A DNA stretch of 64,000 nt from Escherichia phage Turkey5. The first letter of the stretch is position 1. Each line of letters opens with the position of its first letter. Location of the stretch: sequence record PQ471516.1. One strand, 5' to 3'. The notes below the pieces were generated by a model that did not search any database, was not told the origin of the DNA, and was given only the letters and a program-made list of their open reading frames with translations. Position numbers and translations under genes: made by a program. Below, piece by piece: positions 36,967-38,625 of the stretch.

Positions 36967-37400
36967 ACCTAAATGTATCTAAAGAGTTTTTTGATGATGT
37001 CAAAGAATCTTTCTTACAATTAAACGAGAATAGTCGTTTAGATCCTGAAATCAAAGAGGTTGTTCTTCGTTGGCAGAAGAGTCCTTTATTAGATAAAATT
37101 GTTCCTAGATGGAGTTGTCAGGGTCACAGTGATACACATAGTGATTCTGATTATTACATTATTTTCTGTACACAGGACGATGGTGCTGATATTCTATATG
37201 ATATTTTTGATGAGTTTTGTAAGAGTGCCCGTTGGAACTACCGTGTTATTAAGTTGATTCACCAGAATCACTTAGTTGCGGAACCGCACATTGAAATTGG
37301 TCGATACACGGAAGGTCACCAGGAGACTATGAACCACATGAAAGCTTTATGGCTCGCCAAATTACAGGAGATTGAGGATAATCATGAGCAATACAAATAA
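36963..37400 (+). CDS. hypothetical protein
   Basis: 145 aa ORF. Confidence 0.45.
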   Translation: MNLNVSKEFFDDVKESFLQLNENSRLDPEIKEVVLRWQKSPLLDKIVPRWSCQGHSDTHSDSDYYIIFCTQDDGADILYDIFDEFCKSARWNYRVIKLIHQNHLVAEPHIEIGRYTEGHQETMNHMKALWLAKLQEIEDNHEQYK

Positions 37401-38625
37401 ATTTCTTGAACAAACAATTGTCAAGCACTTAGCTGGCTCACAGGCATACGGAACCAGTACACCACAAAGTGATACCGATTATCGTGGTATCTTTTTGGCA
37501 AACAAAGAGTTCATCATGACTCCTTTTTATCGAGTCAAGGAAGTATCTGATGTAAATGAAGAAGATACGAAATTCTATGAACTAAATCAGTACTTACAAC
37601 TGTATACTGAAGCTAACCCGAACATTCTTGAATCACTATGGGTTGACCCTGAACACATCGTAGAAAGTACTGAGATTTATGATTATCTCCGTAGCTTCAA
37701 CCGTGATCTTCTTAGTTCTAAGATTGCATTCTCTTACACTGGTTATGCATACAATCAGGTAAAACGCATGTCAAATCACCACGGTTGGATTGGTAAAGAA
37801 CAAGTAGCAGAACGCCGCTTACGTGAAATCTTCACCGAGCACCCAACTAATGAAGTTGTTGATTGGATGTACGCGTATTTCCCTGATTATGTGGTAGAGC
37901 GTGTTGTAGAAGAAGATAAGGTACTAGACCGTAAAGATATAGTTGATTTCGACAAATACATGCGTGATACTTCCTTACAACTTATCAGTACTGTTCCTTT
38001 AGCACAACATCATTTTGTTCGTTTAGTTCATAACTATCTACCACAAAAAGTACTAGATCGTGACTTTAGTCTAGCTAACTTCAATCATGGGTACGAGTTA
38101 ATTCACTACGGTGATAATATCTTTGCAGTTATTCCTAACGTTAATACTAAAACTATTAGTGTAAACAATGATCTAGTATGGGATAGTTCCAAAGAACGCA
38201 CACCAGAAGAACTAAAGATTACTCCTGCACTTATTGTTAAATTCAATCGTAAAGAGTACGAAGAAAACAATGAAGGTCGCAAGAACTATCACAAGTGGAA
38301 AGAGAACCGTAATGCGAAGCGTGCAATTTTAGAATCAAAACACGGATATGACAGTAAACATGCTATGCATACGATTCGCCTGTTGAATACAGCAGAAGAA
38401 GCATTACTTACTGGTGAAGTTCTTGTAAAACGCCCTGATGCTGATATGCTTATGGATATTCGCAACGGTAAGTGGACTTATGAAGAAGTCATGGAGTACT
38501 TCAACGATAAGGTTGACTATATTCGTAATGTGGTTTACAAGAAGTCTGTACTGCCGAAGAAGCCAAATATTGAATTAGCATCTAAAGTACTAATCGATAT
38601 TCGAGAAATGCAGTGGTATAAGTAA
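37384..38625 (+). CDS. Pol-beta-superfamily nucleotidyltransferase-like protein
   Basis: N-terminal GSQAYGTSTPQSDTDYRGIF (GS-x9-13-DxD); GAGGA RBS; 413 aa. Confidence 0.45.
   Translation: MSNTNKFLEQTIVKHLAGSQAYGTSTPQSDTDYRGIFLANKEFIMTPFYRVKEVSDVNEEDTKFYELNQYLQLYTEANPNILESLWVDPEHIVESTEIYDYLRSFNRDLLSSKIAFSYTGYAYNQVKRMSNHHGWIGKEQVAERRLREIFTEHPTNEVVDWMYAYFPDYVVERVVEEDKVLDRKDIVDFDKYMRDTSLQLISTVPLAQHHFVRLVHNYLPQKVLDRDFSLANFNHGYELIHYGDNIFAVIPNVNTKTISVNNDLVWDSSKERTPEELKITPALIVKFNRKEYEENNEGRKNYHKWKENRNAKRAILESKHGYDSKHAMHTIRLLNTAEEALLTGEVLVKRPDADMLMDIRNGKWTYEEVMEYFNDKVDYIRNVVYKKSVLPKKPNIELASKVLIDIREMQWYK

Follow-up and report, generated by a model that had tools for sequence, protein, structure and literature searches.

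In this study we describe a gene in a 64,000-nucleotide (nt) stretch of DNA from Escherichia phage Turkey5 (record PQ471516.1; the whole stretch is referred to below as the window) whose product, by its sequence, is a member of the RlaP family of nucleotidyltransferases (NTases). With a probability that we put at roughly 65%, this NTase belongs to a tRNA-repair pathway of the T4 style, in which it would restore nucleotides lost from cleaved tRNA before an Rnl1-type ligase seals the break. The window is that of an Asteriusvirus jumbo coliphage, the DNA in the region of the gene being 95.6% identical to that of Escherichia phage vB_EcoM_JNE01 (Asteriusvirus, 355 kb). A preliminary description of the window had placed a Pol-beta-type NTase in an open reading frame (ORF) at 37384-38625, embedded between structural genes, and the frame proved to be intact on the + strand and to have a good ribosome-binding site. 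The gene and the parts of its 413-amino acid (aa) product are as follows (pI, isoelectric point; pLDDT, predicted local distance difference test score of the AlphaFold2 model; alignment A1, 30 homologues with 40-76% identity).

37374..37378, + strand: Shine-Dalgarno-like GAGGA, 5 nt before the NTase ATG, read from the sequence
37384..38625, + strand: NTase gene assigned to the RlaP family (PF10127), an uninterrupted ORF with an ATG start, 413 aa plus stop
37384..37722, + strand: N-terminal Pol-beta NTase core, residues 1-113, modelled as mixed strands and helices with pLDDT of about 90; acidic, pI 4.6
37435..37479, + strand: active-site motif G18-S19-x10-D30-x-D32, found by regular expression; with D61, its residues make five that are invariant in the 30 homologues
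37564..37566, + strand: D61, predicted third metal-binding carboxylate, in an EEDTK strand; invariant in alignment A1 and aligned to the DDxD of NrdC.11
37723..38247, + strand: central variable region, residues 114-288, comprising a long helix, a helical insert and a small beta subdomain, as read from the gap pattern of alignment A1 and DSSP of the model
38248..38622, + strand: C-terminal helical domain, residues 289-413, basic (pI 9.2), which aligns with the C-terminal domain of NrdC.11

Profile comparisons indicate that the proposal of a Pol-beta-type NTase is correct. The sole Pfam match of the protein was PF10127 (RlaP, RNA repair pathway DNA polymerase beta family; E = 9e-16, 58.8 bits versus a gathering cut-off of 23 bits), spanning residues 16-133, and PHROG 388 ("nucleotidyltransferase") matched it over its full length (E = 7.7e-76); NCBIfam and PADLOC profile scans of the protein gave no match. 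A search of 5.8 billion proteins identified 227 homologues, and among the matches listed PF10127 was carried by 119 of 120, the exception being a 287-aa fragment. One protein that is 100% identical to the NTase, and has PF10127, is already present in databases. Support for family membership also came from NrdC.11 of T4-type phages, which we represented by three proteins from phage records, all of them PF10127 members. When the 30-homologue alignment of the NTase was compared with NrdC.11 using hhalign, the two were matched with a probability of 98.9% (E = 1.9e-17) over 302 columns, residues 14-396 of the query falling on residues 2-316 of NrdC.11 with the C-terminal domain included. NrdC.11 is thus a full-length homolog that is likewise phage-borne and found in genomes with Rnl1 and a polynucleotide kinase/3'-phosphatase (Pnkp), although it has only about 24% identity to the NTase, is shorter (about 328 aa) and is without most of the central region, and residues 114-288 of the NTase align poorly with it. 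T4 NrdC.11 has been assigned to RlaP cluster 5 (PMC12776372); a text search of the literature on nrdC.11 turned up no functional study.

How much of the identification can be credited to the active-site motif? The peptide quoted in the preliminary description, GSQAYGTSTPQSDTDYRGIF, corresponds to residues 18-37 of the NTase, and the GS-x9-13-DxD signature that was noted in it is present at residues 18-32, where G18-S19, ten residues and D30-T-D32 fit the pattern hG[GS]-x9-13-Dh[DE]h. By itself this signature is weak evidence. Of its loose form we counted six occurrences across the window's 101 stop-to-stop segments with 100 aa or more (21,146 residues), and 4.1% of the shuffled versions of the NTase sequence contained it; with hydrophobic flanks required, the NTase was its single match in the window and 0.3% of the shuffles matched. 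It is because of the profile matches (Pfam, PHROG and homologues), rather than the motif, that the identification stands well beyond chance. Conservation of the motif is another matter. Loss of the catalytic acidic residues among homologues had been named as grounds for abandoning the NTase assignment, and in alignment A1 we found D30, D32 and D61, together with G18 and S19, to be invariant. Moreover, the GS, DxD and D61 of the NTase align with the invariant GS, DxD and DDxD of NrdC.11 in T4-type phages. A metal-binding role for D61 is predicted from the three-carboxylate rule of the Pol-beta superfamily (PMC12776372).

The AlphaFold2 model of the NTase, built from a 30-sequence alignment, had a pLDDT of 90.5 and a predicted template modelling (pTM) score of 0.81. 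Its central region is variable: the helical insert, at about residues 141-203, is missing from the 350-aa relatives in alignment A1, and the small beta subdomain occupies approximately residues 212-288 of the model. In the C-terminal third, the residues that are invariant in alignment A1 are mostly basic (K306, R309, R313, K325, H329, R332, R350 and R360, along with W305, N310, E317, D323 and D352), and we presume that this helical domain forms the RNA-binding side of a cleft. The crystal structure of a bacterial RlaP, PfRlaP, has been described as an NTase domain and a C-terminal helical domain that enclose a cleft; the NTP pocket is negative, the floor of the cleft is positive and conserved, and a C-terminal helix packs back against the NTase domain (PMC12776372). 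The domain order and charge split of the phage protein (pI 4.6 versus 9.2) agree with that account, the two having been compared by description. Searches of solved structures were less informative. The Protein Data Bank (PDB) contained no match to the single NTase protein by sequence, and a profile search of it returned only a spurious ribosomal L22 (E = 0.07), indicating no solved relative of the NTase there. Foldseek against the PDB gave weak, fold-level Pol-beta matches only (ANT(4'), AAD(9), LinB and MNT antitoxins, at E of at least 0.02), while in a search of predicted viral structures the matches were phage proteins named nucleotidyltransferase.

The stop codon of the ORF is at 38623-38625 and its product has a mass of 48.9 kDa. 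There is an alternative in-frame TTG at 37372, but we favour the ATG at 37384 because GAGGA is situated 5 nt upstream of it and because the equivalent methionine is the start in the JNE01 annotation and in all homologues. The NTase is 99.3% identical in aa sequence to its JNE01 orthologue, which is labelled hypothetical in that record. All RaK2-like jumbo phages have an orthologue with 57-76% identity, among them 121Q, PBECO4, phAPEC6, RaK2, GAP32, CBB and Serratia BF; those of 121Q (gp506, 74% aa identity), PBECO4, RaK2 (ORF005), GAP32 (GAP32_154) and CBB (gp159) have the same length and the same upstream small-gene synteny, and already carry the annotation "nucleotidyltransferase". The forms in the Vequintavirinae (for instance, PVP-SE1 ORF166 and CR3 gp195) differ in that they are about 350 aa long, have approximately 35% identity to the NTase and are without the insert of about 63 aa.

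What would an RlaP enzyme do in a jumbo phage? The family's known biochemistry comes from the Pseudomonas enzymes PfRlaP and PaRlaP, which add one or two nucleoside monophosphates (NMP) to the 3'-OH of RNA, and not to DNA or protein, prefer Mn2+ and, in a mimic of cleaved tRNA, the 3' end of the 5' half, and allow a tRNA that is short of one anticodon-loop nucleotide to be aminoacylated again (PMC12776372). The Huang laboratory proposed, in the same preprint, that RlaP is an antidote to cut-and-excise nucleases such as RloC (PMC12776372). The phage NTase resembles PfRlaP and PaRlaP (bioRxiv 10.64898/2025.12.29.696909) in its PF10127 match, in having GS...DxD and a third Asp, in the succession of NTase core and C-terminal helical domain, in the acidic NTP site that would face a conserved basic surface, and probably in being encoded by a genome with RNA-repair ligase/kinase functions. 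It differs from them in its length (about 413 aa versus a profile of 249 positions), in its added helical insert and beta subdomain, and in its likely partner, which in the phage would be an Rnl1 (5'-P/3'-OH chemistry) encoded outside the operon and in the bacteria is RtcB. The genes for two enzymes of RNA ends bear on this question.

9..953, + strand: Pnkp, putative RNA-repair partner of the NTase, with Pfam HAD_PNKP (1.3e-44) plus an AAA_33 kinase domain
53618..54730, + strand: class-II CCA-adding enzyme, with a Pfam PolyA_pol head (6.8e-19) plus PolyA_pol_RNAbd; its A4 orthologue is annotated as tRNA nucleotidyltransferase

The ligase gene is expected just outside the window. In A4 and JNE01 an Rnl1-type ligase (PF09511 plus T4_Rnl1_C; 15903..17045 in JNE01) is encoded 1.1 kb upstream of Pnkp, and the Pnkp of JNE01 is 98% identical to that of the window, so the equivalent position of the Rnl1 gene falls just past the left edge of the window. 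An RNA ligase, a PNK and a CCA enzyme are likewise reported for RaK2 (PMC3622015). In more distant phages, too, the NTase orthologue has a gene for tRNA-end repair 2-3 kb away: Thg1 in Pectobacterium phage CBB (3 kb; 3119-3898 of the CBB locus) and the CCA-adding enzyme in Cronobacter phage CR3 (2 kb). No tRNA genes were found in the window. We also observed that genes for end processing or conflict are scattered across the window: Pnkp (9-953), a NinI-like phosphatase (4421-5164), an ATP-dependent DNA ligase beside a calcineurin-like phosphoesterase (7325-9553), a Sir2-like protein (16963-17730), a PIN-PhoH fusion (18950-20389) and the CCA-adding enzyme (53618-54730).

We infer the enzymatic activity of the NTase from its bacterial orthologues, and its role in vivo from gene content and published comparative genomics. 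On these grounds, it would be a template-independent NTase that uses three carboxylates (D30, D32 and D61) and a divalent metal to add one or two NMP to an RNA 3'-OH. Repair would begin after a host anticodon nuclease had cleaved a tRNA, with RloC-type enzymes also excising a nucleotide. Pnkp would then strip the 2',3'-cyclic phosphate or 3'-phosphate and phosphorylate the 5'-OH, the RlaP enzyme would refill the missing nucleotide or nucleotides at the 3'-OH, and the Rnl1-type ligase would close the break. In the bacteria, the chemistry of the RtcB ligase whose gene adjoins that of RlaP does not fit the 3'-OH that RlaP produces (PMC12776372). As Rnl1 requires a 3'-OH and a 5'-phosphate, which is what RlaP and Pnkp would produce, the phage pathway would be free of that mismatch.

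Several observations weigh against this proposal. The PF10127 match of the NTase is limited to positions 25-144 of the 249 in the profile, although coverage is likewise partial in NrdC.11 of T4-type phages and in CR3 gp195. The biochemistry of RlaP comes from one preprint on two Pseudomonas enzymes, which belong to a different sequence cluster, and includes no phage RlaP (PMC12776372). The NTase has about 150 extra central residues that are presumably missing from bacterial RlaPs and because of which its choice of substrate could differ. Also, its gene is not in an operon with a ligase: about 36 kb separate it from Pnkp and, as deduced from JNE01, some 40 kb from Rnl1. These phages are not known to meet a host nuclease that would demand such repair.

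The immediate surroundings of the NTase gene had been described as fibre-like genes, among which an NTase was "unexpected". The location is as described, in that the flanking large genes encode virion proteins. Upstream are two paralogous genes for proteins of about 900 aa (phrog_3573; 899 and 908 aa), followed by five small ORFs and the NTase; downstream are a stem-loop, a 203-aa ORF (tail-fibre PHROG) and a 929-aa ORF (tail PHROG). In phAPEC6 the counterpart of the 929-aa protein is gp314c (87% identity), and that of the upstream 899-aa protein is gp323c (75% identity). However, "unexpected" overstates the case because the NTase gene is accompanied by five small non-structural ORFs, a conserved hairpin and a tail-fibre pair of variable occurrence, and because the wider region is one of nucleotide metabolism (NrdD/NrdG, a Dps-like gene and thymidine kinase). 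The tail-fibre pair is beside the NTase in the window, JNE01, A4 and phAPEC6, but not in Ecwhy_1, RaK2 or CBB, and in Ecwhy_1 an ACP-like gene directly follows the NTase orthologue. The two features that adjoin the gene are these.

36963..37400, + strand: 145-aa ORF, the 3' end of which overlaps the start of the NTase gene by 17 nt
38630..38674, + strand: stem-loop with 17-nt arms, an inverted repeat 5 nt after the NTase stop

The overlap makes translational coupling of the 145-aa ORF and the NTase likely. The 145-aa product shares 45% identity with RaK2 ORF004, which in the same manner overlaps the start of the RaK2 NTase, and has a conserved RWSCQ[GS]H motif; it had weak PHROG matches only and no Pfam match, and the ORF is apparently absent from phAPEC6, A4 and Ecwhy_1. 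This product could be a partner of the NTase. Further upstream, at 34957-36565, we noted a tandem array of three small paralogous ORFs (about 166-198 aa; phrog_18641 and phrog_7868), each with a lysine-rich N-terminus, and the trio is also upstream of the NTase in other Asteriusviruses. Beyond it, at 28898-34940, the phrog_3573 paralogues flank a 195-aa ORF (31610..32197) that is a free-standing copy of their C-terminal 115 or so residues (phrog_26864); the paralogues may be the "hairy" appendages that have been described on the head or tail of 121Q and phAPEC6.

On the other side of the gene, the stem-loop probably marks where the transcription unit of the NTase is divided from the tail-fibre pair. 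We read it in this way because it forms a stable fold (RNA minimum free energy of -20.2 kcal/mol, z = -5.07) and because its stem differs in sequence in A4 and phAPEC6 while pairing is kept via compensatory changes. Conservation extends to its loop, CTAAAAAT, and to a CAATAAATAYYCAATA box downstream, and the box resembles the T4 late-promoter TATAAATA; stem-loop and box together may constitute a boundary of terminator plus late promoter ahead of the tail-fibre pair. A consensus scan for promoters and terminators produced fewer sites overall than shuffled controls. In a span of 11.5 kb, though, there are two candidate sigma-70 promoters that match the consensus perfectly (12/12; TTGACA-N16/17-TATAAT), at 34770-34798 and 42130-42157, each of them near a terminator-like hairpin (34946-34967 and 42155-42183, respectively). 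The former candidate falls within the final part of the 908-aa ORF, ahead of the block of small genes and the NTase.

Could the position of the gene mean instead that the NTase is a virion-associated enzyme that is packaged or injected with the tail apparatus? The idea draws on the flanking genes (899/908 aa and 203/929 aa), which encode virion proteins in phAPEC6. Mass spectrometry of phAPEC6 virions identified gp314c, gp315c and gp323c, but gp316c, the orthologue of the NTase, is not among the virion proteins listed (PMC7247149). Similarly, the CBB record labels some neighbours "structural protein" but not gp159, and, as noted above, the tail-fibre pair is separated from the NTase unit by a conserved hairpin and is missing beside the gene in three of the related phages. 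Given the phAPEC6 proteome and a synteny that varies, we rejected a virion role, and consider its chances to be close to nil. Of the two functions that the preliminary description had offered, RNA repair and anti-defence, it is RNA repair that we favour in view of the protein's RlaP family membership; anti-defence found no backing among the PADLOC anti-defence and defence profiles. It is highly improbable that the NTase produces or alters a signalling nucleotide or oligonucleotide as, for instance, a HalB-like oligodeoxyadenylate synthase that holds the Hailong HalA channel shut. HalB (PDB 9dbh/9dbj), a producer of protein-primed oligo-dA whose partner is the HalA channel, has just 13% identity to the NTase, and the locus has no HalA-like neighbour. 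Nor did the PADLOC profiles match the NTase to CD-NTase/cGAS-like synthases, of which CdnC and CdnE appeared in Foldseek at E > 1. A variant of this idea invokes the roughly 150 additional residues in the centre of the protein (the helical insert and the beta subdomain), which are found in the jumbo-phage and Vequintavirinae clade: through this module, the NTase would synthesise or replenish a host-defence oligonucleotide, such as the HalB-like oligo-dA that closes the Hailong channel, and act in counter-defence, not RNA repair. That, too, seems to us very improbable. In a milder version of this reading, the extra central module could make the NTase a tRNA-specific restorer of the wobble nucleotide that RloC-type nucleases remove and, if that is true, it would be the first demonstrated answer of a phage to nucleotide-excising (in the term of the preprint, "smart") ribotoxins.

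It is unlikely that the NTase tails RNA 3' ends outside the repair of tRNA breaks, for example to mark transcripts of the host or the phage for decay or to top up damaged tRNA 3' ends alongside the CCA enzyme. Bacterial RlaP can use each of the four NTPs to label RNAs of rRNA size and tRNA size as well as fragments and has modest substrate preference (PMC12776372), the NTase gene adjoins neither the ligase nor Pnkp, and in CR3 the orthologue is located 2 kb from a CCA-adding enzyme (2699-4015 of the CR3 locus), all of which would suit such a function. Yet RlaP halts after one or two additions and is therefore ill-suited to tailing (PMC12776372), in the genomes of cells and of jumbo phages the family is associated with RNA ligases, and the phage already has a dedicated CCA-adding enzyme. 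That the NTase might itself be the phage CCA-adding enzyme was considered and rejected: the class-II enzymes (PF01743) are Pol-beta superfamily members as well and make template-independent additions to tRNA 3' ends, but they are a different family, the genuine one is the product of 53618..54730, and PF01743 did not match the NTase. We likewise give very little credence to nucleotidylylation of a small molecule or a protein, as performed by the antibiotic transferases ANT(4') and LinB or the AMPylators DrrA and GlnE. The structural matches on which it would draw are weak (Foldseek E of at least 0.02; template modelling score of at most 0.33), close sequence or structural similarity to the aminoglycoside/lincosamide NTases (ANT(4') and LinB) over both domains was not found, bacterial RlaP did not label E. 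coli proteins (PMC12776372), and a nucleic-acid substrate would fit the conserved, basic character of the C-terminal domain.

We conclude that the NTase gene can be named as encoding an RlaP-family RNA 3'-nucleotidyltransferase, in place of the "hypothetical protein" of JNE01. In itself this is routine annotation, as the family, its occurrence in jumbo phages and its predicted role are already known: RlaP is the most prevalent repair NTase of jumbo phages and its distribution mirrors that of RNA ligases (Iyer et al., 2021). Of modest further value is the combination of enzymes. A phage with RlaP, Pnkp and Rnl1 would be the cleanest system in which to test restoration of the nucleotides removed by RloC-type anticodon nucleases.

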